Below, piece after piece: positions 2,489 through 27,227 of a DNA stretch of 64,000 nt (position 1 is the stretch's first letter; each line of letters starts with the position of its first letter). The stretch spans positions 9,029-73,028 of the forward strand of contig JBBIVQ010000007.1 of NCBI GenBank assembly GCA_037439645.1. Reading direction: 5' to 3'. This DNA is from Deltaproteobacteria bacterium. GTDB lineage: Bacteria > Desulfobacterota > Deferrimicrobia > Deferrimicrobiales > Deferrimicrobiaceae. The translations under genes and the position numbers were made by a program. Under the pieces are notes generated by a model. It saw only the letters and a program-made list of their open reading frames with translations, did no database searches and was not told where the DNA came from.

Positions 2489-3079
2489 TCACCCCGCGGG
2501 CTTTTCTCCTTCGCCGAACACTTCCGCGGTAAACGCCCAAAGCGTCGCCCCCTGCCGCCACGCCGAAACCGGCAGGCCGGCCTTCACGCACACCTGTTCG
2601 AGGAATTTCTCCCGGTCCCATCCCCATTCGACGGGGACCTGCGGCAGCAACAGCCCCCGTTTCCGGCCCTGCGACACCAGCAAACCGTGCCGGCCGACCT
2701 CGACGTCTTCGGGGCGGATGGGAAACAGTGGGGTGAGTACGGAGATCTCGACGCGCACGGAGCGGAGTTCGTCCGATGATACGGGAGGAAAGCGGGGATC
2801 CTCGGTGGCGGCTGCCACCGCGCACTCCTGGACGACCTTGAAGAGCGGAGCCACCGCCTCGGTGTACCCGATGCAACCGCGCAGGCGGCCGTTCTTCGTG
2901 AGGGTGACGAACGCGGCCCCCGGGGCGGCAAGCGTCCCCGCCGTTCCTTCCCCTTCCTCGGCGGGAACCTTCCCCGCGACGACGTAACCTTCCATCGCCC
3001 TGCGGGCGACCCCGAGAAGAGCGGCCCGCTGCGCATCGTCCAGATAACCTCCCGGGTCCGTCCGGGCGGTTTCCGTCAT
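2489..3079 (-). CDS. AMMECR1-domain protein
   Basis: Minus-strand ORF from ATG at 3079 (GGGGGAG RBS) starts MTETARTDPGGYLDDAQRAALL...GAAFVTLTKNGRLRGCIGY...GLLLPQV. This is the AMMECR1 signature (LRGCIG). Confidence 0.8.
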   Translation of the reverse strand: MTETARTDPGGYLDDAQRAALLGVARRAMEGYVVAGKVPAEEGEGTAGTLAAPGAAFVTLTKNGRLRGCIGYTEAVAPLFKVVQECAVAAATEDPRFPPVSSDELRSVRVEISVLTPLFPIRPEDVEVGRHGLLVSQGRKRGLLLPQVPVEWGWDREKFLEQVCVKAGLPVSAWRQGATLWAFTAEVFGEGEKPAG

Positions 3080-3098
3080 CGGGCCGTCTCCCCCGGGC

Positions 3099-4214
3099 TC
3101 AACCCGGTTGCGGCCGGTATTCCGCCGCGAACGTCCCCACGTTCCCTTCCGCCGGATCCATTTCACCCGGAACGACCATCTTCGATTGGCAAGCGAGGAA
3201 CGCGGGGACGATTTCCGGATCGAACTGGCTCCCGGAGCAGCGCCGGATCTCGGCGATCGCGTCCGCGACGGGAAGGGCCTTCCTGTACGCGCGCGTGGAG
3301 GTCATGGCGTCGAAGGTGTCGGCGACCGTCATGATGCGGGAGGCGAGAGGGATCGCCTTCCCGGCGAGACGGGACGGATACCCCTTCCCGTCGAACCGTT
3401 CGTGGTGGTGCAGGATCGCCGGCAGAAGCGGGTGGAAAAACGGGATCGGTTCGAGGATCCGCACGGCGGCCTCGGGGTGGCGGACGATCTCGGCGAATTC
3501 CTCCTCCGTGAGCCTCCCGGGTTTGTTCAGGACCGCCTCCCGGACGCCGATCTTCCCGAGGTCGTGAAGCACCGACGCCCGGTTCAGGTTTTCGAGCTCC
3601 TGCCCCGCCATCCCCAGTTCCTCGGCGATGGCGACGGAGTAGAGGGTGACGCGCTGCGAGTGGCCGCGCGTGTAGAAGTCCTTCGCCTCGAGCGCCTTGA
3701 TCATCGCGTCGATCGACCGGGCGTACATATGGTTGATGATGTCGGTCTGCTCCTTCACCTTCTTCTCGAGGTTCGCGCGGTAATCGCTCAGCTCCCGCTC
3801 CAGTTCCTTCTTCCGCAACGCGTTCTCGATGGTGATCAGCAGGACGTCGAAGTTGAACGGTTTCGTAATGTAGTCGCACGCCCCCATTTTGAGCGCATGG
3901 ACGGCGGTGTCGAGCTCGGCGTTGGCGGACATGACGATGCCTGCCGTACCCGGGGACCGCTTCCCCCACTCGCCGAGAAGCGCGATCCCGTCCATGACGG
4001 GCATCTTGATGTCGGTCAGGAGGACGTGGTATTGTCCACCCCCTTCGAGCATGGAGAGCGCCTCGTTCCCGTTCGATGCCTCGTCCACGGAATATCCCGC
4101 GATTCCGAGGCGTTCCCTCACGATGGATCGGAGGAATTCCTCGTCGTCGACCACCAGGATGCGTGCCCTGGAGGAGCGCTCCCCGATCCCCGGGGTCTGG
4201 ATTGCATGGCCCAT
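3099..4214 (-). CDS. response regulator: receiver domain fused to HD-GYP phosphodiesterase
   Basis: N-terminus ILVVDDEEFLR...LLTDIKMPVMDG is a REC domain. C-terminus has LHDLGKIGV...HHERFDGKGYP, the HD-GYP motif. The stop lies 20 nt upstream of the AMMECR1 start on the same strand. Confidence 0.85.
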   Translation of the reverse strand: MGHAIQTPGIGERSSRARILVVDDEEFLRSIVRERLGIAGYSVDEASNGNEALSMLEGGGQYHVLLTDIKMPVMDGIALLGEWGKRSPGTAGIVMSANAELDTAVHALKMGACDYITKPFNFDVLLITIENALRKKELERELSDYRANLEKKVKEQTDIINHMYARSIDAMIKALEAKDFYTRGHSQRVTLYSVAIAEELGMAGQELENLNRASVLHDLGKIGVREAVLNKPGRLTEEEFAEIVRHPEAAVRILEPIPFFHPLLPAILHHHERFDGKGYPSRLAGKAIPLASRIMTVADTFDAMTSTRAYRKALPVADAIAEIRRCSGSQFDPEIVPAFLACQSKMVVPGEMDPAEGNVGTFAAEYRPQPG

Positions 4215-4292
4215 GATCTGATTATCGGCTGCGAATCCTGAAAACTTTACCGAAGAAACGGATCGGGATTCCCCGAGGAGTGCCAGATGGGT

Positions 4293-5333
4293 TCATACGT
4301 TGAACCGGACGTGCAGGATGTCCCCGTCCTTGACGACGTACTCCTTCCCCTCGAGACGGAGTTTTCCTTCTGTCTTCGCCTTCGCCATCGAGCCGCACCG
4401 AAGGAAATCGTCCGAGGAGATCACCTCGGCCCGGATGAAGCCTTTCTCGAGGTCGGAGTGGATCTTCCCCGCCGCCGCCGGGGCGGCGCTCCCCTCCCGC
4501 ACGTTCCACGCGCGCACCTCGTCCTCCCCCACCGTCAGGAAGGAGATGTACCGGGTCGCCTCGAACGCCCCGCGGACGAGCTGGTCCCGGGCGGACCGCG
4601 CGATCCCCATCTCTTTCAGGAAGTCGGCCTGCTCGGACGGCGACAGCTGGGCGATCTCCTCCTCGACCTTCGCGCACAGGCGCACCATGGGGACCTTCGC
4701 GTCCGCCGCCGCCGACGTCACGGCGGGGGGCGGATCCGACGTCACCTCCCCCTCCCCGACGTTCAGGACGAGCAGGGTCGGGAGGCGGCTGATGAACCGG
4801 AACCCCGAGAGGACCCGTTCCTCCTCGGCCGACAGGTCGACGCTCCGGAGGGGAAGATCGCGCTCGAACGCCGCGATCGCCTTGTGCAGTGCGGTCCACT
4901 CCGCGTCCCGCTTCGCTTCCTTCGTCATCCGCTCGACCCGCTTCTGCGCGACGAGGTAGTCGGAGAGGACGATGGCGGAGGAGAGTTCGCGGAATTCCGC
5001 CGCGGGGTCGAGTCCGCCGGGAGGCGCCGGGTGGTAGTCGTCGGCGAAAGCCCGGACGACCAGCGCGAGAACCTCGACGTTCCGAAGCTCCGTCAGCGCC
5101 TGCGGGGCAAGAAGGTCCGTCTCCCCCGCGTCGATGTCGTGGAACGCGATCGAGATGTAGGTGGTCTTTTTCGGCCGGAAGATCTCCGCCATCCGGTCGA
5201 CCCGCTCGTCGGGGACCTTGATGGCGCACACCCCCGCGTTCTTCCCCGGGGCGCTCCCTTCCACGATGCCCGAAAGCGAACGGAACAGCGTGCTCTTCCC
5301 CGATCCCGTGTTTCCGAAGATGCCTACGTCCAC
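4293..5333 (-). CDS. ychF: ribosome-binding ATPase YchF (Obg-family GTPase)
   Basis: GTG start at 5333 with an AAGGAAGGGG RBS. Product starts MDVGIFGNTGSGKSTLFRSLSG (P-loop) and ends in a TGS-like domain (GKEYVVKDGDILHVRFNV). Confidence 0.9.
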   Translation of the reverse strand: MDVGIFGNTGSGKSTLFRSLSGIVEGSAPGKNAGVCAIKVPDERVDRMAEIFRPKKTTYISIAFHDIDAGETDLLAPQALTELRNVEVLALVVRAFADDYHPAPPGGLDPAAEFRELSSAIVLSDYLVAQKRVERMTKEAKRDAEWTALHKAIAAFERDLPLRSVDLSAEEERVLSGFRFISRLPTLLVLNVGEGEVTSDPPPAVTSAAADAKVPMVRLCAKVEEEIAQLSPSEQADFLKEMGIARSARDQLVRGAFEATRYISFLTVGEDEVRAWNVREGSAAPAAAGKIHSDLEKGFIRAEVISSDDFLRCGSMAKAKTEGKLRLEGKEYVVKDGDILHVRFNV

Positions 5334-5584: not shown

Positions 5585-6199
5585 TCACTTGCGGCCCCAC
5601 TTGCCGTCGTCCGACTGGATCGCCCAACCGGCCTGTGCCTTCTCCCTCCACTGTTTCGAGAACACCCGCCGGACCTGCGGCACCTGCTCCGTTTTCAGGT
5701 TGAGGGCTTTGGAGACCTCTTCGTAGAGCTGTCTCCGCGCCGCATTGTCCGCGTCGACCAGCCTCTTCATGGCCGCCACCTGCTGCAATCCCAAACCGTC
5801 GGTCCCGCGGACCGAAAGGAACCCGTCCCTGTCGATTCCCACATGGCCTTGCCCGTAGAAGGGGAGCAGTTGACCGTGCCGCTGGCCGATCTGGTCCTTC
5901 AGCCCGCGGATGGCGGCGTTGCTGACGGTCGTCGCCTCTTCGGCGAAGGCGATCTCCGGGCCGGGTGCGACGATCCGGGCGATGGTCCGGAACACGCCCC
6001 GTTCGTTCGACGACCCGGGTTTTTGCGACGGCGGATCCTTCGGAGGCTCCTGCTTCTCCCGGTAAACGTCTTCGACGATCTTTTCCGCCGTCTTTTCCAC
6101 CTGGGCGGCCGGGAAATAGACGTTGACCGTGACGCAACCCGCGATGAACGCGAGGACCGTGGCCACGGAGAAGATTGCGGGATGAACCGGCCGTTTCAT
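5585..6199 (-). CDS. YdbL-like periplasmic lipoprotein (DUF1318 family)
   Basis: Lipoprotein signal VLAFIAGC. The C-terminal region LVDADNAARRQLYEEVSKALNLKTEQVPQVRRVFSKQW resembles the YdbL/DUF1318 family. It sits immediately downstream of the large YdbH-like gene. Confidence 0.65.
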   Translation of the reverse strand: MKRPVHPAIFSVATVLAFIAGCVTVNVYFPAAQVEKTAEKIVEDVYREKQEPPKDPPSQKPGSSNERGVFRTIARIVAPGPEIAFAEEATTVSNAAIRGLKDQIGQRHGQLLPFYGQGHVGIDRDGFLSVRGTDGLGLQQVAAMKRLVDADNAARRQLYEEVSKALNLKTEQVPQVRRVFSKQWREKAQAGWAIQSDDGKWGRK

Positions 6200-6236
6200 G
6201 CGATCTCCCTTCCTGCAACGGTTGTCGGGCGTTTCC

Positions 6237-9200
6237 TCACCGGGACCGTTCGCCGGTCACGCGCTTCGCGCGGTCCAGCATGTCCGAAAACCCGATCCGG
6301 TTGTCCGCGTTGGCGTTGACCACGTCGATCCCGGAGAAGAAGCGCCTCTTGACGAGATATTCTACACCGTCTTCGTGGATGAGGCCCCGGACGGCGAAGA
6401 CGTCGTTTTCGAGGCGGCATTCGAAACCGATCTTTTCGTAGGAAAATTCCCGGAAAATCTTCGTCATCAGGGAAACCCCGAGCCCGCTCAACCCGGATCC
6501 CGTGCCCACCAGGGAGATGGAGTTCACCGCCTTGAGGCTCACCGACTGCTTCACCCCTTTCACCGGTACGGACTCCATCTTCAGGTGAAACGCGACGGGC
6601 TGGCCGTAGGCGATCCGCATTCCCTTCAGCGTGCCGGAGAGTCGGCCGGTGACGCGGCCGACGCCCAAGGCGGCGGAGAAGCGTTCGAGGTCGAGGAGGG
6701 AGACTTCGATGTCGGCGCCGATCTCACGGCCGGGGGCGAAGGGCCGGTCCACCGCCACGCGGCGGACCTCCCACCGGCCGCCGAACAGGTCGCCGGTGAG
6801 CGCGCCGTCGGCGGTTCCCCGCTCCCGTTCGATGACGACGGGGTCCAGGATCCCCCCGAGGTGTCCCTCCAATGACGGATCTTTTCCTGCGAGACGCGCG
6901 AGATCGAGTCCGTCCAACCGCGCCGACATCCTGACACGGAACTTCGGAGAGAGCGGTTCGTCGACCTGGATTCGCCGCAGCGAGACGTTCGCGCCGAAGA
7001 CCGGCAGGTCGACTGTTCCCCCGAGGTAGAGGTGATTGGGCACCAGGACGGCCGGAACGTCGAACGGTCCCAGGATCCTTCCGTCCAGGAAAACCCGATC
7101 GAGCCGTATCCTGCCCCACTTCTCCGCGGCCGCCGGCCTCGGGCGCCCCGGGTTCGCGGCGCCGAGGGAATAAGCGATCGGCAGGTCGACGTCGAGCCCC
7201 GAAAGAAACGGGGGGTCGGTTCCCGTGCGGACCTCGCCCGAGCGCAAACGAAGTTCTCCGCTCAGAACGGCGGCGTTCCCGGAACCGGAGAACGAAAGGT
7301 CGATCCCGGCGGTCCCGTCCAGGTCCGCTTTTTCCATGGCGGGGTGCGAAGTCGACAAGGGATCCTTGAGGAAGGTCCGGAAGATCGGCCCGAGGCGGGC
7401 ATCGCGCACCGCGATCCGTCCCCTGTGGCTCCATCTTGCGCCTTCACGCCGGGCATTCCCGGAGAGGGTCAGGCGTCCGAATCCGTCCGAACCGCCCTCC
7501 AGGAGGAGGTCCGTGTACTCCCCGGGGGCCGGCCGGGTTCCCTCGACGTGAAGTGCCACGGGCGCCTTGCCGAAGTCGGCGTATACCGTGCCCCACAAGG
7601 TTTCCCCTTGACGAAGGGCCAGGTCGCCCTTGATCCGTGGACGAGGACCAAGGACCGCATCGAGCTGGATCCCGGCGCGAAGGTCCCGGCCCATCACGTC
7701 GCCGGAGGGAGAAGCGAAACCGAGACGGTCGAACGTGACCGCCGCCGTCATCCGCGGGCCGCCGGCCGCGGGATCGAGGAGAACGGCGACGTCGGCGGCG
7801 CCGGTGGGCGACCACGACGCAACGCCGGTTGCGCCGAGCGCACGGACCAGGGGAACCAGGGGCTCGACCGGCATCCGCTCGGCGGACATGCGTCCCCCGA
7901 CGCTTCCTCCGCGGAAGGAAAGGTCACCCGTCACGCGTCCCGCGACCTCCGAGCGGATCTCGATCGGCCCGACACGGAAGGCGTCGCCAAACGGTCCGGC
8001 GGATCCCCGAAGGTCCAGTTTCCCGATGGGCAACGGCCTTCCTTCATACAGCAGGTCCCCGGCCCCGACCGTCAATCCCCATCCGGGAAACGTGGGGTGG
8101 GAGGTCCTTCCTGCAAGCGGAACGTCGAAGCCGAACCGGCGCACGTCCAAGGGCCCCCGCTCGAATCGTCCGTATCCCTGGAGTCGCCCCGTCATGGGGA
8201 TCCTGCCGGCGGCCCACTCCGCCAACCGGCCTTTCAGGAGCAACGATCCCCCGATGCGACCGTCGAGTCCGGCCTCCCGATGGGAGATCGCCAGGTCCCG
8301 TGGGAGAAGGTTCACCTCCAGGACGCGATCCCTTCCGGGCGAGGAGAGGGCGAGGCGGAAGGGAAGACTCCCCTCCGGATCGACACCCGCGATGACGCCG
8401 GGCAGGACGGAATCCAGAAGAGGCTTCCACCGATCGATGTTTCGGATCGACCCGGCCGCCGTGACCGTGAGATCCTCCCATCCGGGTCCGCCGATCTTCC
8501 CGGCGGCGTGCAGAAGGCCTCCGACATCCAGCGTCCGCACCTCGATACGTGGATTCTTCCCGTCGAGGGTCGCCCCCGCCGTCGCGCCCAGCCGGATCGG
8601 ACCGACGCTCTTCCGCGGGCCTTCCGCAAGGCGCACCAGCGCATCCGGCATGAACAGGGTGAACGGGTCGGCCAGGAGGTCCGAACGGCTCACCTTCAAC
8701 GTCGCCCGGCCGATCATGCGGCCGGCAAGCCTGGGCAGGTCCAGGAGGACGTTCGCCGACGCCAGGTCGACTTCGAGCGAGGGGCCGCGAACCACCTTCC
8801 CTTGGGCCGAAAGCGTTCCGGCGGCGACGGTGGCGCCGTTTCGGCGAACGGCGAGTTCCGCGGAACCGTCGAGGCGGCGTATCCCCGCGCCCGAAGGGGT
8901 CATCCGCACCTGCAACCGGTCGGCCGCGAGTTCGCCCCGCGGGAACGCGATCCGGAGCCGGGATTCCGTCATCGAAAGATCTTCGACGTCGAACAGGCGG
9001 TTGAGCGGCGAAAGGTCCGGCGGGCCTTTCGTCTCCCCGGGACGCGGCCGCTCGAAGACCAGGCCGTTCGCTTCGACGTGCCGCAACCATGGGCCTCCGC
9101 CGAAGAGGCGGCCGGGGATCGGTTCGGCGCGAAGACGGTCCAGGCGCAGCAGGTCGCCTCCGGGTGCGGGCCAGGCGATCGAGAGGCCGGAAAGCGCGAT

Positions 9201-9389
9201 GGATGGCGGGTCCAGGGAAATTTCCAGCTTTGCGAGCGAGGCGCTTCCGCCTCTCGGGGTAAGTGCCCGACGCACCCAGGGGAGGGCCAGGTCGGGCCGT
9301 TTCGCGATCAACGCGAACGCGGATACGGCGAACACGATCAGCGCCGCCAGGCCCGCGGCGCACCGGATCGCCGCGCGTTTCACCGACAC
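6237..9389 (-). CDS. large membrane-anchored YdbH/AsmA-like protein (DctA-YdbH type)
   Basis: About 1050-aa minus-strand ORF. Proposed GTG start at 9389 (GGGGAG RBS) gives an N-terminal TM helix RAAIRCAAGLAALIVFAVSAFALIA. The protein is long, repetitive and Gly/Arg/Leu-rich, and is followed by the YdbL-like gene, as in the ydbH-ynbE-ydbL arrangement. Family assignment is by architecture and context only. Confidence 0.55.
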   Translation of the reverse strand: MSVKRAAIRCAAGLAALIVFAVSAFALIAKRPDLALPWVRRALTPRGGSASLAKLEISLDPPSIALSGLSIAWPAPGGDLLRLDRLRAEPIPGRLFGGGPWLRHVEANGLVFERPRPGETKGPPDLSPLNRLFDVEDLSMTESRLRIAFPRGELAADRLQVRMTPSGAGIRRLDGSAELAVRRNGATVAAGTLSAQGKVVRGPSLEVDLASANVLLDLPRLAGRMIGRATLKVSRSDLLADPFTLFMPDALVRLAEGPRKSVGPIRLGATAGATLDGKNPRIEVRTLDVGGLLHAAGKIGGPGWEDLTVTAAGSIRNIDRWKPLLDSVLPGVIAGVDPEGSLPFRLALSSPGRDRVLEVNLLPRDLAISHREAGLDGRIGGSLLLKGRLAEWAAGRIPMTGRLQGYGRFERGPLDVRRFGFDVPLAGRTSHPTFPGWGLTVGAGDLLYEGRPLPIGKLDLRGSAGPFGDAFRVGPIEIRSEVAGRVTGDLSFRGGSVGGRMSAERMPVEPLVPLVRALGATGVASWSPTGAADVAVLLDPAAGGPRMTAAVTFDRLGFASPSGDVMGRDLRAGIQLDAVLGPRPRIKGDLALRQGETLWGTVYADFGKAPVALHVEGTRPAPGEYTDLLLEGGSDGFGRLTLSGNARREGARWSHRGRIAVRDARLGPIFRTFLKDPLSTSHPAMEKADLDGTAGIDLSFSGSGNAAVLSGELRLRSGEVRTGTDPPFLSGLDVDLPIAYSLGAANPGRPRPAAAEKWGRIRLDRVFLDGRILGPFDVPAVLVPNHLYLGGTVDLPVFGANVSLRRIQVDEPLSPKFRVRMSARLDGLDLARLAGKDPSLEGHLGGILDPVVIERERGTADGALTGDLFGGRWEVRRVAVDRPFAPGREIGADIEVSLLDLERFSAALGVGRVTGRLSGTLKGMRIAYGQPVAFHLKMESVPVKGVKQSVSLKAVNSISLVGTGSGLSGLGVSLMTKIFREFSYEKIGFECRLENDVFAVRGLIHEDGVEYLVKRRFFSGIDVVNANADNRIGFSDMLDRAKRVTGERSR

Positions 9390-9438
9390 GGGATTTCTCC
9401 CCGGATCCCTTCCCGGCGAAAATGGCCTCTCATCGTTC

Positions 9439-10002
9439 TCACCGGGCCGTGAGGATGAGCGCGGTCTCGATCGTCGCGGCGATGACGAGAAGGGGGAAGA
9501 CGACGGCGAAGTACCTTCGGAACGCATGCTCGATGTGGAACCGGAGCATGGTTTCCTCCTTGCCGCGCATCCGTCGGAGGACCGTCACGCCGAGCCAAAG
9601 CCCGTACGAGGCCACGACGAGAAGCGCCGGGATCTCGAAAATCCCATGGGGCAACACCTTGAGGATCGCCTTCCCGTAACTTCCCGCTTCGGCGGCGTGG
9701 GTGTACAGCACTCCGAGAAAAAATCCGTTGGACGCGATGGAGAGGACGGGGAGGATCCCGACGAGAACTCCGGAGACGAGGATCAGGATCGAGCCCATCA
9801 CGTTGTGGACGAGGAGGAAGAAGAAGAGTCCGCCCCCGGAAAGACCGGCGTAGTTGTCGACGACCATTTCGTAAGCTTCCGTCGCCTGCTGCCGCACCGG
9901 TGCGGGTGCGGCGGTGCCGGCGAGAAAGGCGGCCGAGAAGAGCAGCGAGAGGAGAAGGATATACGGAGCGAGCCGCCTCTCGGGTGCGGGTAGAGGGATC
10001 AT
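9439..10002 (-). CDS. DUF95/SpoIIM-like integral membrane protein
   Basis: ATG at 10002 with a GGAGG RBS. Several predicted TM segments (YILLLSLLFSAAFLAG, FFFLLVHNVMGSILILVSGVLVGILPVL, FAVVFPLLVIAATIETALIL). Resembles stage II sporulation protein M/DUF95 membrane proteins. Confidence 0.55.
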   Translation of the reverse strand: MIPLPAPERRLAPYILLLSLLFSAAFLAGTAAPAPVRQQATEAYEMVVDNYAGLSGGGLFFFLLVHNVMGSILILVSGVLVGILPVLSIASNGFFLGVLYTHAAEAGSYGKAILKVLPHGIFEIPALLVVASYGLWLGVTVLRRMRGKEETMLRFHIEHAFRRYFAVVFPLLVIAATIETALILTAR

Positions 10003-10054
10003 TCGGCCTCCGAAGTCGTGTGGCCTGCGGAAACGTCCCGAACGGCGGCGAGCC

Positions 10055-11743
10055 TCATGGCTCGATGGGGGACCGGGAAAGAAACCCGTGATCCGTTTTC
10101 ATCGTCCCCAGGCTCTTGTCGTACCGCGTTTCCGCCATCAGTCTCCCCGACAGGAGGCCCGCCTGGAAGTCGAGGACGATCTCGTTCATGGAGATTTCAT
10201 AGTCCACGTCGAACAGTTTCCTGAAAAAGTACGTGTTCTTCCCCACGGAACTTCCGCAGCCGAAAATGCGGATCGGCCGATGTTCCGCGTCGGGGGCGGG
10301 CACTTTCCCCGCGATCGGGATATGTTTGTGGCCGTGAAGGATCGCCTTCACTCCGTGTGCGCCGCAGAATCGAAGGAATTCCCGCGCATCCGCCAACCCG
10401 TCCATATGCTCATAGGCGTAGCCGATGAACTTTCGCAAGGATGCCCCCAGCGTCTTTTTATGGAACCGGTGCATCTCCGGGTCGAGCCGGTGCAGTTGCA
10501 CGGGATGATGATGCAGCAGGGAGATCAGGGTCGTACGGGTCGTCCCCCCCGGGAGAAGGTTCAGCCGTTCCTCGATGGCACTGTATTGCTCCCCCGTGAT
10601 TTTTCCGCGCGCCATCCTTCCGCCGGCGGCGGAATTCCAGCAGAGAATCCCGACAGGATGCCCCGTGATCCACTCGATCCGGGGATGAACGGGGGGGAGA
10701 AGGGACGAGGATGCCGCGTGACTGCGCAATACTCCCTTCCCCCGGACGTCGTGATTTCCGGGGACCCAGATCGGATCCTGGCCTCCAGGCTGCAGTTCCT
10801 TCAAAAAATGATGGAAGTCGTTCGCGCAGATCACGTTGTTCTCGTCCGGCGTCTGCAGGATATCCCCGCTCAACAGAAATACGACGGAGGAATCGCCCCG
10901 GTTTCGTTCGAAATAATTTCTCAGGAGACCTTTCACCCTGACGATCCTCTCGATCGATTTCCTGCTTCCGATGTGGGTATCGCTCAAATGCAGCAAGGTC
11001 AGCCGGGTACCCCCATGGATCCGGCAGGAAGGGAATGCCTCCAGGTAATGACGCGTCAAGAGACCGCCCGGAGTATTCGCAAGATGGTTCACCCTTGAAA
11101 AAACCCATCGGATGGCATCTTCCGTCCTTTCCGCGGGGAGCGGAAAAAAGAGCGGTTCGTCGCTTTTTCGCCAGAGCAAGATTGCCGGCCAGCGGGTGGA
11201 TTTCGACAAGGCGGACTGGAAGGGAGGATATATATCCGTTATGGTGACGTCATTTTGAGTGGCTTTCTTCAAGTGAAGTATGAGATGCGGATCGGCATCG
11301 ACGGCACGCGACACTTTCGACAGGAATGCTTTCGATGTCAACAATTCGTCGACAGGGTGGAACTCCCGGAACCCGGACGGGATGAGGACCGCGGTCCACT
11401 CCCTTTTCGAAAATAGATCGCGCAGATCCATGACGATATCGTCGTACCGTTGGTGCGGACGTTCACGGACCGTGGTTCTCATGCGAGCCGCCGTTTCGGC
11501 GACCTTCGCCTGCGATTTCCCGTGAAAATACAACCCGTCGACGAGGTTCCCGAGGAACGCGATCAAGGTGTCCCTTACGAGCCCCGGATCGGCGATGCCG
11601 GGGATCCGGTTGCGCCTGTCCAGGACGTAGGATATCCAGTTGGCCGACTGCAGATTGAATCGTTCCGGCAAGCGCCTCTCCAGGTGGCGGTCTCCGTCCT
11701 CGGTCGGTGCATTCGGGTCATTCTGATCATACGATTTCTCCAC
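10055..11743 (-). CDS. metallophosphoesterase (calcineurin-like) with ~240-aa N-terminal domain of unknown function
   Basis: C-terminal half has phosphoesterase motifs LLHLSDTHIG, LSGDILQ, VPGNHD, GHKH. The N-terminal ~240 aa has no recognised family. The 5' part of the gene is visibly more AT-rich than its neighbours. Confidence 0.75.
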   Translation of the reverse strand: MEKSYDQNDPNAPTEDGDRHLERRLPERFNLQSANWISYVLDRRNRIPGIADPGLVRDTLIAFLGNLVDGLYFHGKSQAKVAETAARMRTTVRERPHQRYDDIVMDLRDLFSKREWTAVLIPSGFREFHPVDELLTSKAFLSKVSRAVDADPHLILHLKKATQNDVTITDIYPPFQSALSKSTRWPAILLWRKSDEPLFFPLPAERTEDAIRWVFSRVNHLANTPGGLLTRHYLEAFPSCRIHGGTRLTLLHLSDTHIGSRKSIERIVRVKGLLRNYFERNRGDSSVVFLLSGDILQTPDENNVICANDFHHFLKELQPGGQDPIWVPGNHDVRGKGVLRSHAASSSLLPPVHPRIEWITGHPVGILCWNSAAGGRMARGKITGEQYSAIEERLNLLPGGTTRTTLISLLHHHPVQLHRLDPEMHRFHKKTLGASLRKFIGYAYEHMDGLADAREFLRFCGAHGVKAILHGHKHIPIAGKVPAPDAEHRPIRIFGCGSSVGKNTYFFRKLFDVDYEISMNEIVLDFQAGLLSGRLMAETRYDKSLGTMKTDHGFLSRSPIEP

Positions 11744-11858
11744 CGTGAGAGGAACAGCTCCCGCCGCCGTGCGTGGAATCCCTCTCCCGGGATGAATGCC
11801 GCGCTGTTCACCGTTCCGGAAAATCGTGCATAATTATCCGTAAAGGGGGGGGCGATCC

Positions 11859-12464
11859 ATGCGAAAACGATCGGCGGTTCTCGCACTCTGTCTCGTGGTG
11901 GGGTTTTCCGGCTGCGGCTACAATGCGTTCCAACGGAACGACGAGTTGATCAAATCGAGTTGGTCCGAGGTACTGAACCAGTACCAGAGACGGGCGGACC
12001 TGATCCCGAACCTCGTGAACACGGTGAAGGGGTTCGCCGCGCAGGAAAAGGACGTGCTGTTGGGCGTCACGAACGCGCGCTCGAAGGTCGGAAGCATCCA
12101 GGCGACCCCGGAGCTGATCAACAGCCCCGAGGCGTTCGCGAAATTCCAGGCGGCCCAGGGGGAGTTGTCCGGGGCGCTCTCGAGGTTGCTGGTGGTGTCG
12201 GAAAATTACCCGCAGCTCAAATCCGACGCCAACTTCCGCGACCTCCAGGCGCAGCTCGAAGGCACCGAGAACCGGATCGCGGTCGCGCGCAACCGGTATA
12301 TCAAGGCGGTGCAGGAGTACAACGTGACGGTGCGCTCCTTCCCCTCCAACCTGACCGCAATGGCGTTCGGGTATAAAACCAAAGCCAACTTCACGGTGGA
12401 GAACGAGAAGGAGGTCTCCAAACCTCCAAAAGTCGATTTCGCGCCTGCGCCGGCCAAGCAGTAG
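11859..12464 (+). CDS. lemA: LemA family protein
   Basis: MRKRSAVLALCLVVGFSGCGYNAFQRNDELIKSSWSEVLNQYQRRADLIPNLVNTVKGFAAQEKDVL...NRYIKAVQEYNVTVRSFPSNLTAMAFGY is the canonical LemA sequence. RBS AAGGGGGGG. Confidence 0.85.
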   Translation: MRKRSAVLALCLVVGFSGCGYNAFQRNDELIKSSWSEVLNQYQRRADLIPNLVNTVKGFAAQEKDVLLGVTNARSKVGSIQATPELINSPEAFAKFQAAQGELSGALSRLLVVSENYPQLKSDANFRDLQAQLEGTENRIAVARNRYIKAVQEYNVTVRSFPSNLTAMAFGYKTKANFTVENEKEVSKPPKVDFAPAPAKQ

Positions 12465-12468
12465 AAAA

Positions 12469-13365
12469 TTGGCGGACCGGACCGGACAGGGGGCGGTGTG
12501 GAGGGCGGCAAGAGCGGCCACGGCGGTCATGGCGATCTTCTGGGCCGTCGCCGCTTGGGCCGAGGTCCCGGTCCCTCCTCCTGAAGGACGCGTCAACGAT
12601 CGGACTTCCACGCTATCCGCGGAGCAGATCGGTTCGCTGGAACAGACCTTGCGGTCGTTCGAAGCGAGGAAGGGGAGCCAGGTCGCGGTGTTGATCGTTC
12701 CCACCACCGCGCCCGAAACGATCGAACAGTACGCGTTGCGCGTGGCGGAGCGGTGGAAACCGGGGAGGAAAAACGTGGACGACGGGGCGCTTCTCGTCGT
12801 CGCGAAAGACGACAGGAAGATCCGGATCGAGGTGGGGTACGGACTGGAAGGCGCGCTCACCGACGCCGCCTGCAAGCGCATCATCGCCGAGGCCATCGTG
12901 CCGAGGTTCCGGCAGGGGGATCTGTACGGGGGGATCACGGCCGGCGTCGACCGGATGCTCCGCGTGATCGACGGAGAGGTGTTGCCGGTGCCCGATGGAC
13001 ATCGCCCCCGGGCGGGCCGCGGGTTCGGATTCCTTCTTCCCGCCATGTTGATCCTTGCGCTCGTGGTGGGGGGGGTGTTGCACGCCGTGCTCGGCAGATT
13101 CCCCGGCGCTCTCGTTACCGGCGGGGCCGTCTCCATCGTCTCCTGGATGCTGATCGGCGCGGTCTCCGCCGCCTTGATCGCGGGGGTGATCGCGTTCCTG
13201 TTCACCCTTTTGGGCGGCGGCATGGGGGGGCGCGGAATCGGTGGAGGGATGATCGGCGGGGGGTTCGGCGGCCGCGGGTTCGGCGGCGCGGGGGGATTCG
13301 GGGGCGGCGGTTTCAGCGGCGGCGGCGGGGGATTCGGCGGCGGAGGCGCGTCGGGGGAGTGGTGA
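12469..13365 (+). CDS. TPM-domain (YgcG-like) membrane protein with Gly-rich C-terminus
   Basis: Signal-like N-terminus (AVMAIFWAVAAWAEV), then a TPM phosphatase-type domain (RVNDRTSTLSAEQIGSLEQTL...QVAVLIVPTT...LLVVAKDDRKIRIEVGYGLEG), TM segments and a GGFGGGG tail. Sits in the usual lemA neighbourhood. The exact start is uncertain (TTG at 12469, GTG or ATG slightly downstream). Confidence 0.65.
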   Translation: MADRTGQGAVWRAARAATAVMAIFWAVAAWAEVPVPPPEGRVNDRTSTLSAEQIGSLEQTLRSFEARKGSQVAVLIVPTTAPETIEQYALRVAERWKPGRKNVDDGALLVVAKDDRKIRIEVGYGLEGALTDAACKRIIAEAIVPRFRQGDLYGGITAGVDRMLRVIDGEVLPVPDGHRPRAGRGFGFLLPAMLILALVVGGVLHAVLGRFPGALVTGGAVSIVSWMLIGAVSAALIAGVIAFLFTLLGGGMGGRGIGGGMIGGGFGGRGFGGAGGFGGGGFSGGGGGFGGGGASGEW

Positions 13366-13367
13366 CG

Positions 13368-13865
13368 ATGGACGTGAAACGGATCTCGAGGCACCTCCTT
13401 GCGACTCGATGGAAAGTCGCCCGCGCGTTTCCCGCCGGCGCCCTGGCGGCGATCGAACGGGCGATCGTGGCGAGCGAAGCGACCCACCACGGCGAAATCC
13501 GGTTCGCTGTGGAGGCCGCCCTGGACACGCATGCGCTGCTGCGTGGACAAACCGCGAGGGAACGCGCGATCGACGTTTTTTCGAGGTTGCGGATCTGGGA
13601 CACGGAATGCAACAACGGCGTGTTGATCTACCTCCTTCTCGCGGACCGGAATGTGGAGATCGTGGCCGATCGCGGGATCGACGCCCTGGTGGGTCCACGA
13701 GAATGGGAGCGGATCTGTCGGCGGATGGAAGACGCCTTTCGGCGGGGGGAGTTCGAGGAGGGCGTGGCCGGCGGGATTCATGAGATAACGGCGCATCTGG
13801 CGATGCACTTTCCTCCGGTCGCCGACGACCGGAACGAATTGCCGGATGAACCGGTGGTGCTGTAG
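13368..13865 (+). CDS. TPM-domain protein (second member of the lemA-TPM-TPM trio)
   Basis: ATG at 13368 overlaps the previous stop, with a GGGGGAG RBS. Product MDVKRISRHLLATRWKVARAFP...HHGEIRFAVEAAL...NGVLIYLLLADRNVEIVADRGI is TPM/DUF477-like. Confidence 0.65.
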   Translation: MDVKRISRHLLATRWKVARAFPAGALAAIERAIVASEATHHGEIRFAVEAALDTHALLRGQTARERAIDVFSRLRIWDTECNNGVLIYLLLADRNVEIVADRGIDALVGPREWERICRRMEDAFRRGEFEEGVAGGIHEITAHLAMHFPPVADDRNELPDEPVVL

Positions 13866-13932
13866 CGCGCCTCCGGGCATCGCCGGTGTCGCACGGGGAC
13901 CGCTCGATAATGGAAGGAGGTGGGAGCCGTCC

Positions 13933-15237
13933 ATGGGGAGTACGGGACCGATCCTGATCGTCGACGACGAAGTGAGCATCCGGAAATCGCTCGAGGGCGT
14001 ATTGGGCGACGAGGGATATTCCTGCGCTCTCGCGGACAACGGCGCCGCCGCGCTCGCCCTGCTTCCATCGCTGCATCCGTCCCTCGTGCTTCTCGACATC
14101 TGGATGCCGGGGATGGACGGGATCGAAACGCTCCGAAGGATGAAGGCCGCGCAACCCGGCGTTCCCGTGATCATGATGAGCGGCCACGCGACGATTTCCA
14201 CGGCCATCAAGGCGACCAGGTATGGCGCCTCCGATTTCATCGAAAAGCCTCTCGAAATCGACGTGGTGCTGAATGCCATCCGCCGGGCCATGGAGGCGCG
14301 GGAAGACGTGAAAAGGCCGGGCGACGGCGAACCCGCCGATCCGTCCGAATTCGGGCCGGCGAAAGGGACGCCGGAGCTGCGGCCGCTGGTCTTCCCGAAA
14401 CAGGAGATGCGTGGAGACCCCATGCCGCAACGGACGCTCTCCCGGAGCGCGGTTCTGTACGGCCAGGGCCTTCATTCAGGGAAAAAGAGCGGCCTGATCC
14501 TCGAACCGCTGGGTCCCGATTCGGGGATCCACTTCGTCGGCGTTTCCGACAACCGGGCGGTTCCGGCGCACCTCGATTTCGTCGAGTCGACCGGCTGGGC
14601 GACGACCCTCCGCCTCGGCACCACCCACGTCGCCACCATCGAACACGTCCTGTCCGCGCTCAACGCCTACGGGGTGAGCAACCTGCTCATCAAGTGCAAC
14701 GGCGAGGTTCCCGTTCTGGACGGATCCGCCGTCGAATTCTGCTCCCTCTTCGAGGAAGTGGGGTTCGAGAACCAGCGCGGGGAGTGGTACCGGATCGCGG
14801 TGAAGGAACCGGTACGGATCGACAGCGGAAAGGCGTCGATCCGGATCGAGCCGTGCGAGGCGTTCGAGATCGAGTACACCCTCGAATATCCGCCCCCGGT
14901 CGGGAAGCAGCACTTCGTCTTCCGGCTCGACGATCCCGCGACCTACCGGAAGGAGATCGCCCCCGCGAGAACCTTCGGGTTCGCCCGGGACATCGGGATG
15001 CTGCAACGCCAGGGGTTGGCCCTCGGCGGGCGGTTCGACAACTTCGTCCTCTTCGGGGACGAGGGGCCGATCAACGACGCCCTTCGGTTTCCCGACGAGC
15101 CGGTGCGCCACAAGATCATGGACATGATCGGGGATCTCTACCTGCTCGGACGCCGGTTGCAGGGGAGAGTGGTCGCCCACATGACGGGGCACACGCAAAA
15201 CATCGCCTTGCTGGAAAAGATAAGGAAATCGTTGTAA
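13933..15237 (+). CDS. lpxC: fusion protein: N-terminal response-regulator receiver domain + UDP-3-O-acyl-N-acetylglucosamine deacetylase (LpxC)
   Basis: ATG at 13933 (GGAAGGAGG RBS). Residues 1-120 form a REC domain: ILIVDDEVSIRKSLE, LVLLDIWMPGMDG, MMSGHATISTAIKATRYGASDFIEKP. The remainder is LpxC: RTLSRSAVLYGQGLHSGKKSGLILEP, HVATIEHVLSALNAYGVSNLLIKCNGEVPVLDGSA, FGFARDIGMLQRQGLALGG, HKIMDMIGDLYLLG, AHMTGHTQN. Confidence 0.8.
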   Translation: MGSTGPILIVDDEVSIRKSLEGVLGDEGYSCALADNGAAALALLPSLHPSLVLLDIWMPGMDGIETLRRMKAAQPGVPVIMMSGHATISTAIKATRYGASDFIEKPLEIDVVLNAIRRAMEAREDVKRPGDGEPADPSEFGPAKGTPELRPLVFPKQEMRGDPMPQRTLSRSAVLYGQGLHSGKKSGLILEPLGPDSGIHFVGVSDNRAVPAHLDFVESTGWATTLRLGTTHVATIEHVLSALNAYGVSNLLIKCNGEVPVLDGSAVEFCSLFEEVGFENQRGEWYRIAVKEPVRIDSGKASIRIEPCEAFEIEYTLEYPPPVGKQHFVFRLDDPATYRKEIAPARTFGFARDIGMLQRQGLALGGRFDNFVLFGDEGPINDALRFPDEPVRHKIMDMIGDLYLLGRRLQGRVVAHMTGHTQNIALLEKIRKSL

Positions 15238-24106: not shown

Positions 24107-26110
24107 TCACGCTCCCGGCGGCAATTCCGGCTCCACCCCGGCGCCGGCGAAGCGCGCGGCGATCTCGCGGAACTTCCCGTTCACCTCCAGGAACGCGTTC
24201 CTGGAGGCGGGATCGAAGTACGTTCCCCGCCGTTCGCCCATGGCGCGCACCGCATCCTCGTGGGACAGGGCAGGCTTGTAGACGCGGGGAGAGATGATCG
24301 CGTCGTAGGCGTCCGCAACGGCCATCAACCGGCCCGCGAGCGGGATCGCTTCTCCCCGCAGTCCGTTCGGGTACCCTGTTCCGTCCCACCGCTCGTGGTG
24401 GTTGAGGACGAGATCGTCGGCGATCTGGAAAAACGCGTCCTCCCCCATCATCCGTTTCGCCAGCCGGATCGTCTCGGATCCGTACAGCGTGTGCCGTTTC
24501 ATCTCCTCGTACTCCTCCTCCGTCAAACGGTCCGGTTTCAGGAGGATCCGGTCGCGCACGCCGACCTTCCCGATGTCGTGGAGCGGAGCGAGGCGGAAGA
24601 GGAGATCTACGGTGGCGTCGTCCAGCCGGTTCCGGTACGCCGGTTGCGACTGCATGCGTCCGGCGAGGACCCGGATGTAATGACGCGTCCGCTGGATGTG
24701 CCCCCCGGTTTCGTGGTGCCGGGTCTCGGTCAGCGCGGCGAGGCTCTGGATGATGGCGTCCTGGGTGAGGGCGAGTTTGCGTGTCCGTTCCCGGACCTCC
24801 CGGTCGGCCATGACGAAGCGCATGGAGGCGAGCGCGGCGAAAACCACCGCGAGCGTGGCGACCGGAAGAAGCGGAGGGAGGAAGATCCGTTTGTAGGCGA
24901 GGAGCGCCCAGGAGCCGAGCCAGATCGCCGCCGCGAACGGCACGATCATGGCGAGCCCCCAGGCGGCGCTGGAGCGCGCAAGGAGCGCGGTCAAAAGAAA
25001 TCCGGGAAACAGGACGAGGAGGAGTTTCACCACCCTCGACCATCGCGGCGCGGCGATCGGGTCCCCCGACAGAAGGTTGGAGAGGACGTTCGCGTGGATT
25101 TCCACGCCGGGCTGGGCGGCGTCGAGCGGAGTGGTGCGGATCTCCTTGAGACCGGCGGCGGTGGTGCCGAGAAGGACGAATTTCGATCTCAACCGGGACG
25201 GGTCCGGCAAACCCTCGAGAACGGCGGCGGCGGATAGATGGGGAAACGTGCGGTGAGGGCCGCGGAAGTTGACGAGCAGGTTGCCGTGACGATCGAGGGG
25301 AATCCGTTCTCCGCCGAGCCGGATCGCCTCGATCCCGTCGGAATTCGTCTCGAGGACGGTCCCGACGCCGCGGGCACGAAGGAACAGGGCGAGGGCGAGG
25401 GTCGGGTAGTGGTTCCCCCCGTGCCGGATCACGAGGGGGATGCGGCGCACGACTCCGTCCGGATCCGGGGTGACGTTGAAAAAACCGGAGGAGCCGGCCG
25501 CTCTCGCCAGCGCCGCCAGGTTGCAGACGACCCCGGGGGAGTCGAACAGGCCGTCGGCGTGGCCCGCACCCCCGTCCGCATGGATCGCCGCGCGAAGCGG
25601 GTGGAGCACGCAGGCCGCTCCCCGCGTCGACTCGAAGTCGAACTGGTACCCGAGGACGAAGGGGCCGCCGTCAAGGGCCTTCGCAAGGGTTCGGTCGGTG
25701 TCGAGCGCCTCCGGTGGAAATTCCGCGGGGTCGATCTTCGCGCCGATGTCCCGCAGGATCTCTCCGGAGAGGGTCGAAAGCGACGTCCGGTCGGGTTCCG
25801 CGAACACCATGTCCAGTCCCACCGCGGCCGCGCCGCCCTCCCGGATGCGTTCGAGGAGCCGGGCGACCCGGTACCGCGGCCAGGGCCACTGACCGAGACG
25901 TTCGAGGCTCGACTCGTCGAGATCGACGATCACGATCGACCCGTCCGCCGGACGATGGGGAGAGGAGCGGAGAAAGGAGTCGTAGATCTTCCCCTCGATG
26001 GAAACCGCCAGCGGCGGGGACCAGACGCAGAGAGCCCCGCCGAGAAGGGTGAGGGCTACGCCCGCAAGGGTCGTCGGGAGGGGGAGTCGGCGCTCCGGGT
26101 TTCTCGACAC
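24107..26110 (-). CDS. CHASE2 sensor domain fused to HD-GYP phosphodiesterase
   Basis: Proposed GTG start at 26110, directly after the OmpA-like stop. N-terminal TM, then a periplasmic CHASE2-like region (VIVDLDESSLERLGQWPWPR...GFFNVTPDPDGVVRRIPLV) and TM helices. C-terminal HD-GYP (LHDIGKVGV...HHERWDGTGYP). The long upstream extension in the ORF track overlaps two real genes and is rejected. Confidence 0.75.
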   Translation of the reverse strand: MSRNPERRLPLPTTLAGVALTLLGGALCVWSPPLAVSIEGKIYDSFLRSSPHRPADGSIVIVDLDESSLERLGQWPWPRYRVARLLERIREGGAAAVGLDMVFAEPDRTSLSTLSGEILRDIGAKIDPAEFPPEALDTDRTLAKALDGGPFVLGYQFDFESTRGAACVLHPLRAAIHADGGAGHADGLFDSPGVVCNLAALARAAGSSGFFNVTPDPDGVVRRIPLVIRHGGNHYPTLALALFLRARGVGTVLETNSDGIEAIRLGGERIPLDRHGNLLVNFRGPHRTFPHLSAAAVLEGLPDPSRLRSKFVLLGTTAAGLKEIRTTPLDAAQPGVEIHANVLSNLLSGDPIAAPRWSRVVKLLLVLFPGFLLTALLARSSAAWGLAMIVPFAAAIWLGSWALLAYKRIFLPPLLPVATLAVVFAALASMRFVMADREVRERTRKLALTQDAIIQSLAALTETRHHETGGHIQRTRHYIRVLAGRMQSQPAYRNRLDDATVDLLFRLAPLHDIGKVGVRDRILLKPDRLTEEEYEEMKRHTLYGSETIRLAKRMMGEDAFFQIADDLVLNHHERWDGTGYPNGLRGEAIPLAGRLMAVADAYDAIISPRVYKPALSHEDAVRAMGERRGTYFDPASRNAFLEVNGKFREIAARFAGAGVEPELPPGA

Positions 26111-26115
26111 GCGGG

Positions 26116-26766
26116 TTACCGGATCGTGATCTCGACCCGGCGGTTCCGGGGCTCCGGGACCTGGTCGCCGGTGGGGATGAGCGGGTTGTCCTTCCCGTGG
26201 GACGTGATGTCGAGAATCGAGCGATCGACGCCGCTCTTTTCGAGGATCGACGCCACCGCCTTTGCGCGCTTCAGGGAGAGGGCGTAGTTGTACTCCTTCT
26301 TCCCGACCGTGTCGGTGTGCCCCACCACGCTGATGTCCACCGGCGGGCGGTCCCGGATCGCCTGCACCACCTGTTTCAAGGATGCCTTCGACTCCCGCGT
26401 CAGGTCGGCCGAATCGTGCTCGAAATGGAGGATGTAGCGCAACGGGGGCTTCGGCAGAACCGCGAGGGCCGGGCCCGCCATCGCCTGCACCTCCGGCATG
26501 GGCATCAACGCGGGGGGCCCGGGAGCGGACCCCGCCTCCACCGTCACCGTTTCCCCGGGGCGATCCAGGCGGCGCTCCACCCCGCCGGCCGTCACTACGA
26601 TCGCGCCGGTCTTCCCCTGGTCGTCCGGAAGGAGGACGATGACGTCGCGTGCCGCCGGGGGCCCCGGCTTCAAGGGAGCGGCGCAGGAGGCGGCAAGGAA
26701 CAGGATCGGAATCGAAAGAGCGATCATCCGGCCGATCCCCGGGATCCGGTACGGAAACGCCCTCAT
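26116..26766 (-). CDS. OmpA-family peptidoglycan-associated (lipo)protein
   Basis: Signal/lipobox-like MIALSIPILFLAASC. C-terminal OmpA_C-like domain (ISVVGHTDTVGKKEYNYALSLKRAKAVASILEKSGVDRSILDITSHGKDNPL...RRVEI). The start ATGA-overlaps the upstream FecR-like gene. Confidence 0.75.
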   Translation of the reverse strand: MRAFPYRIPGIGRMIALSIPILFLAASCAAPLKPGPPAARDVIVLLPDDQGKTGAIVVTAGGVERRLDRPGETVTVEAGSAPGPPALMPMPEVQAMAGPALAVLPKPPLRYILHFEHDSADLTRESKASLKQVVQAIRDRPPVDISVVGHTDTVGKKEYNYALSLKRAKAVASILEKSGVDRSILDITSHGKDNPLIPTGDQVPEPRNRRVEITIR

Positions 26767-27227
26767 CGGGGAACCGCCTCCGCAACGGATACGGCGAAGC
26801 GGGTTCCCCGGATGCCGATCGTCGCGGTGGGGGTCTCGAAGCGCGCGTTTTCGGGTGCCAGTTTTCCGATCCATCCCGAGAGGTACGCCATCGTCCCCCG
26901 GGTGATGCGTGCCACCAGGGCGAATTTCCCCTCCGAGGGAGAAAACCGGAAGGTGCGGAGAAGCAGTCGGCTTTCCGGTCCGACGGAGAGGGAGGAGTCG
27001 TCGTGGAGGATGATGCCGATCGAACCGCCTCGGCCGGTGACGAGGGCATCGCCGGCCAGGAGCTTCAATCCGGGTTTGGCCGGGAGCGATTCCTTCCCGC
27101 GCGCCACGGCGGCGTCGCCGGACGCGGATCGCACAACGCCGACCGTTTCCCCGGCGCCCGCGGGACCGGGAACTGCAAGGAGGCAGAGTGCGTACACCAG
27201 AAGCGCGGCAGTCGGAACGTGCCCCAA
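26763..27227 (-). CDS. secreted FecR-domain-like protein (paralog of 16775..17236)
   Basis: TTG start at 27227 preceded by a GAGGGGGG RBS. Signal peptide ...TAALLVYALCLLAVPGPAGAG. Shares KGTMAYLSGWIGKLAPENARFETPTATIGIRGTRFAV with the paralog. Confidence 0.6.
   Translation of the reverse strand: MGHVPTAALLVYALCLLAVPGPAGAGETVGVVRSASGDAAVARGKESLPAKPGLKLLAGDALVTGRGGSIGIILHDDSSLSVGPESRLLLRTFRFSPSEGKFALVARITRGTMAYLSGWIGKLAPENARFETPTATIGIRGTRFAVSVAEAVPR

Follow-up and report, generated by a model that had tools for sequence, protein, structure and literature searches.

An NtrX-type receiver domain fused to LpxC in a Deferrimicrobiaceae genome and in other uncultured bacteria

[quoted passage not shown] What is understood of its regulation comes mainly from a few Proteobacteria, in which proteolysis or the binding of partner proteins is at work. 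Is there another way of adjusting this enzyme? The question is raised by a gene at positions 13933–15237 of the forward (+) strand in a 64 000-nucleotide stretch of DNA (the window, whose numbering is used throughout unless another locus is named), taken from contig JBBIVQ010000007.1 of assembly GCA_037439645.1, a Deltaproteobacteria bacterium placed in the family Deferrimicrobiaceae. The gene encodes an LpxC with a two-component receiver (REC) domain at the N-terminus of the same chain. A conserved covalent fusion of this kind predicts a different solution, namely direct phosphorylation-dependent control of LpxC. From the sequence and its relatives we consider it fairly probable, although well short of certain, that one polypeptide combines a response regulator with LpxC and that an NtrY-type kinase phosphorylates the receiver residue D55, thereby switching LpxC post-translationally.

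A preliminary description of the window had suggested such direct phospho-control and had not recognized it as a described mechanism. This holds for coupling at the protein level, but transcriptional two-component control of lpxC is known, through NtrYX and through DVU2934, as are response regulators with enzymes as outputs. A full-text literature search found no description of a receiver–LpxC or NtrX–LpxC fusion. The words 'fusion', 'receiver' and 'response regulator' do not occur in a 2025 review of lipid A regulation (PMC12444477), a 2026 paper on the NtrYX family mentions no lipid A, lipopolysaccharide or deacetylase, and the MBNT15/Deferrimicrobium genome paper is silent on lipopolysaccharide (LPS) genes. 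The use of LpxC as a fused output and the NtrX origin of the protein appear to be undescribed.

The fused gene and its two domains

The enclosing open reading frame (ORF) spans 13846–15237 (+). We placed the start at ATG 13933, which is preceded by AAGGAGGTG, because a Shine–Dalgarno site (GGAGGTG at 13915–13921, +, with the GGAGG core at 13915–13919) ends 11 nucleotides ahead of it and because the resulting protein of 434 residues, closed by a TAA stop codon at 15235–15237, has the modal length among more than 100 homologs; on the same two grounds the longer start at 13846 was rejected. The G+C content at third codon positions (GC3) is 0.84 in this + frame, and codon bias is uniform along it. 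The long minus-strand ORFs that overlap the gene are by-products of high G+C.

The receiver is of the NtrX type and occupies residues 5–123 (13945–14301, +). Residues 7–116 match the Pfam family Response_reg (PF00072) with 110 bits against a cutoff of 30 (E = 7e-32). Among NCBIfam models the best receiver match is NtrX (NF051870), at 124.9 bits over the REC region only, and the best matches in the PDB are the Brucella NtrX structures 4d6x and 5m7n. The preliminary description had called the phosphorylation site intact, which the codons bear out: the acid pocket D11/D12 lies at 13963–13968 and is followed by E13, the phospho-acceptor D55 within LLDIWMP lies at 14095–14097, and S83 (14179–14181), F102 (14236–14238) and K105 (14245–14247) are all present on the + strand. 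Across 66 divergent fused proteins of 32–60% identity, D12 is kept in 65, D55 in 64, a serine or threonine at position 83 in all 66 and K105 in 65.

The remainder of the chain contains a complete LpxC domain (residues 163–434; 14419–15234, +), which begins at the native N-terminal QRTL motif and aligns end to end with the LpxC structures from P. aeruginosa, E. coli and Aquifex (E = 4e-47 to 8e-41). Its match to PF03331 covers residues 166–430 with 277.8 bits against a Pfam cutoff of 27 (E = 1e-82), and it passes the NCBIfam lpxC equivalog TIGR00325 with 231.5 bits (cutoff 187.25). The motifs EH, TFGF, HKxxDxxGD and GH are all kept. The catalytic E237 is encoded at 14641–14643, the zinc ligands H238, H393 and D397 at 14644–14646, 15109–15111 and 15121–15123, T347 and F348 at 14971–14976 and the general acid H420 at 15190–15192, all on the + strand; K394 and D401 are likewise present. 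The counterparts in E. coli LpxC are H79, H238 and D242 for the zinc ligands and E78 and H265 for catalysis. All 66 fused proteins retain E237, H238, H393, K394, D397, D401 and H420, and nine LpxC residues, T347 and F348 included, are invariant or conservatively replaced throughout. Profile scores and residues thus identify the protein as LpxC, with deacetylase activity on UDP-3-O-(R-3-hydroxyacyl)-GlcNAc predicted.

Between the two domains lies a flexible linker rich in proline, glycine and glutamate (residues 124–162; 14302–14418, +), which is variable in length and rich in gaps in the alignment of the short relatives (alignment A1). Selection on the three parts was compared using the ratio of non-synonymous to synonymous rates (dN/dS), calculated for the window protein against three orthologs of approximately 80% identity, and the mean identity to 119 close homologs. 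The ratio is 0.14–0.24 in the receiver and 0.10–0.15 in LpxC, with mean identities of 84 and 88%, respectively, whereas in the linker it rises to 0.56–0.73 and the mean identity falls to 39%. As judged by these ratios, the receiver is under purifying selection. An AlphaFold2 model built on a 41-sequence alignment gives confident structures for both domains, with per-residue confidence (pLDDT) of approximately 80–97 (80–94 in REC), and predicts residues 124–145 to be disordered (pLDDT below 50).

Could the fusion be an artefact in which a frameshift or an assembly error has joined a separate response-regulator gene to lpxC? The preliminary description had raised this as the first thing to check, and the chance of it is now negligible, as the fusion recurs across many independent assemblies. 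An identical protein (100%), with the same neighbours, is on record in the NCBI assembly GCA_037445515.1. In a collection of 5.8 billion proteins, each of the best 120 matches (77–100% identity, mostly 434 residues, from JGI, ENA, NCBI and Logan) combines the two Pfam domains in a single protein; those with a name belong to Candidatus Deferrimicrobium or Deferrimicrobiaceae (phylum Candidatus Deferrimicrobiota). REC and LpxC likewise occur together in every one of more than 240 clusters formed at 90% identity, drawn from independent assemblies in the same four sources. Together with the uniform codon bias, these observations rule out the artefact. The one seemingly split member looked at, P0168, belongs to an assembly that also has the adjacent kinase gene called in fragments. 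A receiver and LpxC in frame within a single ORF, as originally described, is therefore what the gene encodes.

Distribution and descent from NtrX

How widespread is the fusion, and where did it come from? A search of 1.84 billion representatives at 50% identity, of which the best 150 were considered, gave 43 full-length fused clusters for the tree, in short, intermediate and long forms; further matches are fused fragments. The short REC–LpxC forms have 412–461 residues and 32–60% identity, and 20 of them, including the window protein, are in the tree (19 are aligned in A1). The long forms, approximately 15 clusters of 650–736 residues, consist of REC, Sigma54_activat, AAA_lid_14, in some cases the helix–turn–helix (HTH) domain HTH_8, and LpxC; the AAA+ and HTH modules stand where the window protein has its linker. 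Intermediates are represented by REC–HTH_8–LpxC (P0135 and P0137) and by a REC joined to LpxC through a long linker (P0124). JGI names the long forms NtrX, and databases label the fused proteins simply LpxC or NtrX.

A scan of species-representative genomes found at least 23 short and at least nine long fused loci. Their labels, which may be imprecise for metagenome-assembled genomes, are Binatia, Thermoanaerobaculia, Holophagae, Terriglobia, Thermodesulfovibrionia, Nitrospinota, Desulfomonile, Syntrophobacteraceae and 'Deltaproteobacteria'. In all, at least five phyla are on record with the fusion: Deferrimicrobiota, Desulfobacterota-type 'Deltaproteobacteria', Binatota, Acidobacteriota and Nitrospirota/Nitrospinota. 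Complete genomes with the fused gene include OZ241351.1, a Binatia chromosome, and CP070817.1. In a second protein search, seeded from a locus of the genome scan, the best 120 matches were again fused without exception, and all came from uncultured organisms.

In a neighbour-joining tree of the LpxC domain, drawn without support values, the fused forms make up one clade apart from approximately 60 best-scoring stand-alone LpxCs, and the short and intermediate forms are interspersed among the long ones. In several cases the nearest relative in both domains is a long form: P0138 for P0145 (73% identity in LpxC and 66% in REC), P0136 for P0135 (83 and 76%), P0125 for L009 and P0130 for L018. Since the short forms are nested among long NtrX-type forms, the window protein is a reduced NtrX::LpxC, and the closeness of long forms to several short or intermediate ones argues for one fusion followed by at least three to four independent AAA+/HTH deletions. 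The AAA+ module of the long forms has itself decayed. Scored against a segment of E. coli NtrC, the GAFTGA motif is found in none of the 15, the Walker B glutamate is lost in all 15 and several have a degenerate Walker A. Approximately six of the 15 are without HTH_8, while REC and LpxC are always retained. At the level of sequence comparison, a single clade of fused LpxCs with one origin and subsequent domain loss can be regarded as shown. In the scenario that we propose, lpxC would have been joined to the 3′ end of ntrX inside a (DUF4390–)ntrY–ntrX operon, and the AAA+ and HTH modules would later have been deleted several times independently, leaving the REC–linker–LpxC arrangement of the window.

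Several apparent stand-alone members of the fused clade were inspected. P0168, with its fragmented neighbour, is consistent with a frameshifted assembly, and P0153 and P0175, whose N-termini still show remnants of HTH or REC, are therefore truncated calls. P0129 starts with a valine inside the linker and may be truncated; P0196 has a methionine at the native LpxC N-terminus. A candidate fusion in an Acidobacteriaceae genome (L062, 9839–11853) was rejected, as a NarL/FixJ-type regulator gene lies directly upstream of an ordinary, unfused lpxC. In a Thermoanaerobaculia locus (L014, 4383–4673), a decayed LpxC-like fragment of approximately 97 residues, with RCR in place of RHK, follows 1 kb downstream of REC-lpxC and looks like a degenerate partial duplication.

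Candidate kinases, the proposed switch and its alternatives

A receiver calls for a kinase, and the relatives suggest which one. The operon of one long form (P0283) reads DUF4390, NtrY (with NtrY_N, HAMP, PAS, HisKA and HATPase_c domains) and NtrX::LpxC; in recent work on NtrYX-family systems, a DUF4390 protein was put forward as their third component (PMC13001219). Among the matches listed, ntrY stands directly upstream on the same strand in ten of 23 short-form loci (L007, L008, L010, L012, L016, L018, L019, L023, L024 and L034), and none of these ten has a separate ntrX next to ntrY, so that REC-LpxC fills the NtrX slot. On the strength of this adjacency, a candidate cognate kinase can be named for the family. 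The search for it, which the preliminary description had recommended, yielded this candidate in relatives and none in the window itself. Descent from NtrX and frequent adjacency to NtrY together make the fusion a 'Rosetta stone' that ties NtrYX to lipid A synthesis independently, in agreement with alphaproteobacterial transcriptomics.

Some relatives of the window organism in Deferrimicrobium have a different module near REC-lpxC, in which a PBP_like_2 protein is accompanied by a PAS histidine kinase and a regulator of the sigma54 type. It lies directly downstream in L006 and L089 and 7 kb upstream in L087 and L088, and is missing from the window and from L090; its coordinates are 11385–15141 in L006, 9374–13091 in L089 and 1–1494 in L087, followed by HicB-like, hypothetical and single-REC genes. 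This module may correspond to the D. vulgaris DVU2931–2934 system that targets lpxC. A separate observation concerns a Bryobacterales chromosome (L067), in which an unfused ntrY–ntrX pair (1234–4622, −) lies approximately 4 kb from a stand-alone lpxC (8519–9331, +). It is the only one of approximately 48 stand-alone lpxC loci among the matches listed that has NtrY within 10 kb, and the proximity may be due to chance or may be a trace of ancestral linkage.

We propose that a membrane sensor kinase, of NtrY type by ancestry, would phosphorylate D55; in the Deferrimicrobium lineage the PAS kinase of the nearby PBP-like/kinase/sigma54-regulator module could be an alternative donor. Phosphorylation would change the α4-β5-α5 face of the receiver and alter LpxC output through the flexible linker, most likely by relieving or imposing an intramolecular inhibition as in CheB, or else by changing the oligomeric state or the stability of the protein. 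An envelope signal would in this way set the lipid A flux post-translationally, instead of through the FtsH/LapB proteolysis of enterobacteria. Of the direct phospho-control first suggested for this gene, the intact architecture, its conservation, the purifying selection and the adjacency of ntrY all speak in favour, while phosphotransfer to D55 and its effect on LpxC are what we infer from them. That phosphorylation activates LpxC, rather than inhibits it, would be a weak guess. Testing phospho-control could also reveal what NtrY senses.

A number of observations weigh against a phosphorylation switch. The 64 kb window contains no histidine kinase by Pfam scans of approximately 50 ORFs and phmmer searches of its six-frame ORFs (neither NtrY_N nor HisKA was found), and ntrY adjoins REC-lpxC in none of the Deferrimicrobium or Acidobacteriota loci examined. 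Two of the fused proteins have pseudo-receivers, P0145 with D55N and P0150 with D11E, D12N, D55S and K105Q as well as a broken Walker A; LpxC is fully intact in both, and hence it would work without a live receiver in some lineages. The AlphaFold2 model has a predicted template-modelling score (pTM) of 0.68 and no confident packing of REC on LpxC, so that no structural route for allostery is visible, and a linker that is nearly neutral and variable in length is more in keeping with a tether than with a rigid allosteric connection. Furthermore, no cultured host of the fusion was found, all sources being metagenome-assembled genomes.

Some of these points would suit a receiver that is an evolutionary leftover, or a structural, docking or localization module (tethering LpxC to NtrY, for example), in which phosphorylation has no regulatory role. 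The ancestral AAA+ and HTH modules have clearly decayed, D55 is lost in two of the 66 proteins, no kinase lies nearby in the lineage of the window and no REC–LpxC interface is confidently modelled. A tether, however, has no need of a full phosphorylation site, yet D12, D55, S/T83 and K105 are kept in 64–66 of the 66; the receiver is under nearly the same constraint as the enzyme domain while the linker drifts, and it has outlived at least three to four independent AAA+/HTH deletions. We therefore regard a receiver of this kind as improbable. Still less probable, to the point of being far-fetched, is signalling in the reverse direction, with LpxC sensing pathway intermediates and the receiver acting as a phosphate sink or modulator that reports lipid A flux to transcription. 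HTH_8 is kept in approximately nine of 15 long-form clusters, a kinase and a sigma54-type regulator stand beside REC-lpxC in Deferrimicrobium relatives and a regulator of the same class controls lpxC in D. vulgaris, all of which would agree with it. The short forms nevertheless have neither DNA-binding capacity nor any output besides LpxC, and a pure sensor would not need the catalytic machinery that is fully conserved here.

The strongest competitor to a regulated main enzyme concerns not the receiver but the role of the enzyme: the fused protein could be an accessory second LpxC, with a stand-alone LpxC doing the housekeeping and the receiver tuning a supplementary flux or a deacetylation outside lipid A. 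The window has just the fused copy, with no second lpxC in 64 kb by the same Pfam and phmmer searches and no other Raetz-pathway (lpx) gene, and the fused clade is distinct from all stand-alone LpxCs compared. Both facts would fit an accessory enzyme. It is nonetheless above the lpxC equivalog cutoff with every catalytic residue invariant, the gene of its relatives stands among housekeeping genes (rbfA-truB-purA, recN, murI and ATP synthase), the fusion is kept in a 1.09 Mb record described as a chromosome (L009) and lineages with dead receivers retain an intact LpxC. A weaker argument, for which narrow motifs were used, is that no stand-alone LpxC from fusion taxa is among the 80 genome loci listed, which include a 3.83 Mb Binatia chromosome. 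These indirect hints favour a housekeeping role, and an accessory one seems unlikely to us, if a good deal less so than a mere leftover. The phosphorylation switch can also be extended into a broader and more tentative proposal, which we rate as possible but rather doubtful: the fused protein would be the only LpxC in lineages of at least five phyla, would there replace the FtsH/LapB proteolytic circuit and would imply that keeping lipid A and the envelope in balance was the original core function of NtrYX, a system that is still poorly understood.

Upstream of REC-lpxC in the window are lemA (11859–12464, +) and two genes with TPM domains (12469–13365 and 13368–13865, both +), assigned by Pfam. 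The gaps along this series are 4, 2 and 67 bp, the sole promoter-like site lies upstream of lemA at 11807–11834 and no terminator separates the second TPM gene from REC-lpxC in a scan for sigma70 promoters and terminators; lemA–TPM–TPM and REC-lpxC are probably co-transcribed. The same block adjoins REC-lpxC or lies near it in the Deferrimicrobium relatives L006, L087, L089 and L090. A search for sigma54 promoters (TGGCAC-N5-TTGC, at most two mismatches) gave 29 matches against 31 expected, with none in the 13866–13932 gap.

Elsewhere in the window, a gene for a DUF1318 (YdbL-like) protein lies beside a 1096-residue ORF with no Pfam match (5585–9527, −). The arrangement recalls the ydbH-ynbE-ydbL operon for outer-membrane lipid transport in E. 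coli and, if truly of this kind, it would place a further envelope-lipid locus a few kilobases from REC-lpxC. The G+C content dips to 0.584 at 10001–12000, compared with approximately 0.65–0.68 elsewhere, over a metallophosphoesterase gene (10055–11743, −). Two proteins are of the HD-GYP type, a REC-HD-GYP response regulator (3099–4214, −) and a CHASE2-HD-GYP membrane sensor (24107–27049, −). A complete-looking type VI secretion cluster extends from 27971 to 50202 and on to approximately 60000, with genes for FHA-like, TssK/VasE, TssM/IcmF, TssA, TssB, TssC, Hcp, TssE, TssF, ClpV and VgrG proteins, followed by two peptidoglycan-binding proteins, a 1166-residue ORF with no Pfam match (50952–54452) and DUF2169; at the end of the region a Ser/Thr protein kinase is fused to TPR repeats (61692–63491, +).

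Comparison with known systems

In its receiver the window protein resembles NtrX of Brucella, Rhodobacter and Caulobacter and of the PlrSR system of Bordetella, and the long-form relatives share a further feature with this family, an NtrX layout without GAFTGA that follows DUF4390 and NtrY. The differences lie in the output and the neighbourhood: the window protein has neither an AAA+ nor an HTH module, the fused LpxC is its sole output and ntrY is not adjacent. Without AAA+ and HTH it cannot be expected to act as a transcription factor. As these modules are missing and its 124.9 bits fall below the cutoff of 600 for the full-length NtrX equivalog, it is better described as an NtrX derivative than as a member of the family.

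A single chain that leads from a receiver through a flexible linker to a catalytic domain is likewise found in CheB, in the REC-GGDEF proteins PleD and WspR and in the REC-HD-GYP protein RpfG. The active site of CheB is blocked by the receiver as long as the latter is unphosphorylated, and phosphorylation lifts the block. Unlike these regulators, the window protein has as its output not a signalling enzyme but a zinc deacetylase that belongs to an essential biosynthetic pathway, and its origin is from NtrX; unlike CheB, it has no predicted docking interface.

Compared with canonical LpxC, which is controlled in E. coli by proteolysis involving FtsH, LapB (YciM) and YejM and in P. aeruginosa by the binding of MurA, the window protein has the same fold and catalytic residues, but carries an N-terminal receiver and is predicted to be under phosphorylation control. 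The C-terminal tail of E. coli LpxC is its FtsH degron. The window protein has no such tail, as its chain, like that of Aquifex LpxC, stops directly after the catalytic domain, and it would therefore be without this degron; other species whose LpxC lacks the degron have been discussed (PMC12444477). The LpxC–FabZ protein (PRK13188) is another natural fusion of the enzyme and the second-best NCBIfam match, with 188 bits. In that protein, however, the partner is C-terminal and metabolic, whereas the window protein has no FabZ and remains far below the family cutoff of 465.

Two-component systems reach lpxC in other bacteria as well, and NtrYX in particular has previously been linked to the cell envelope. 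Deletion of ntrYX in R. sphaeroides raises lpxC mRNA 8.8-fold and increases LPS (PMC7240162), and lpxC of Caulobacter is repressed by NtrYX (PMC12444477). In D. vulgaris, lpxC is the single target of DVU2934, a response regulator of the sigma54 family, and the lpxC-regulating operon includes a gene for a REC-HD-GYP protein as well (PMC3333781). All of these systems, DVU2931–DVU2934 of D. vulgaris as well as the alphaproteobacterial NtrYX and ChvGI, act at promoters, whereas the receiver of the window protein is covalently joined to the enzyme itself.

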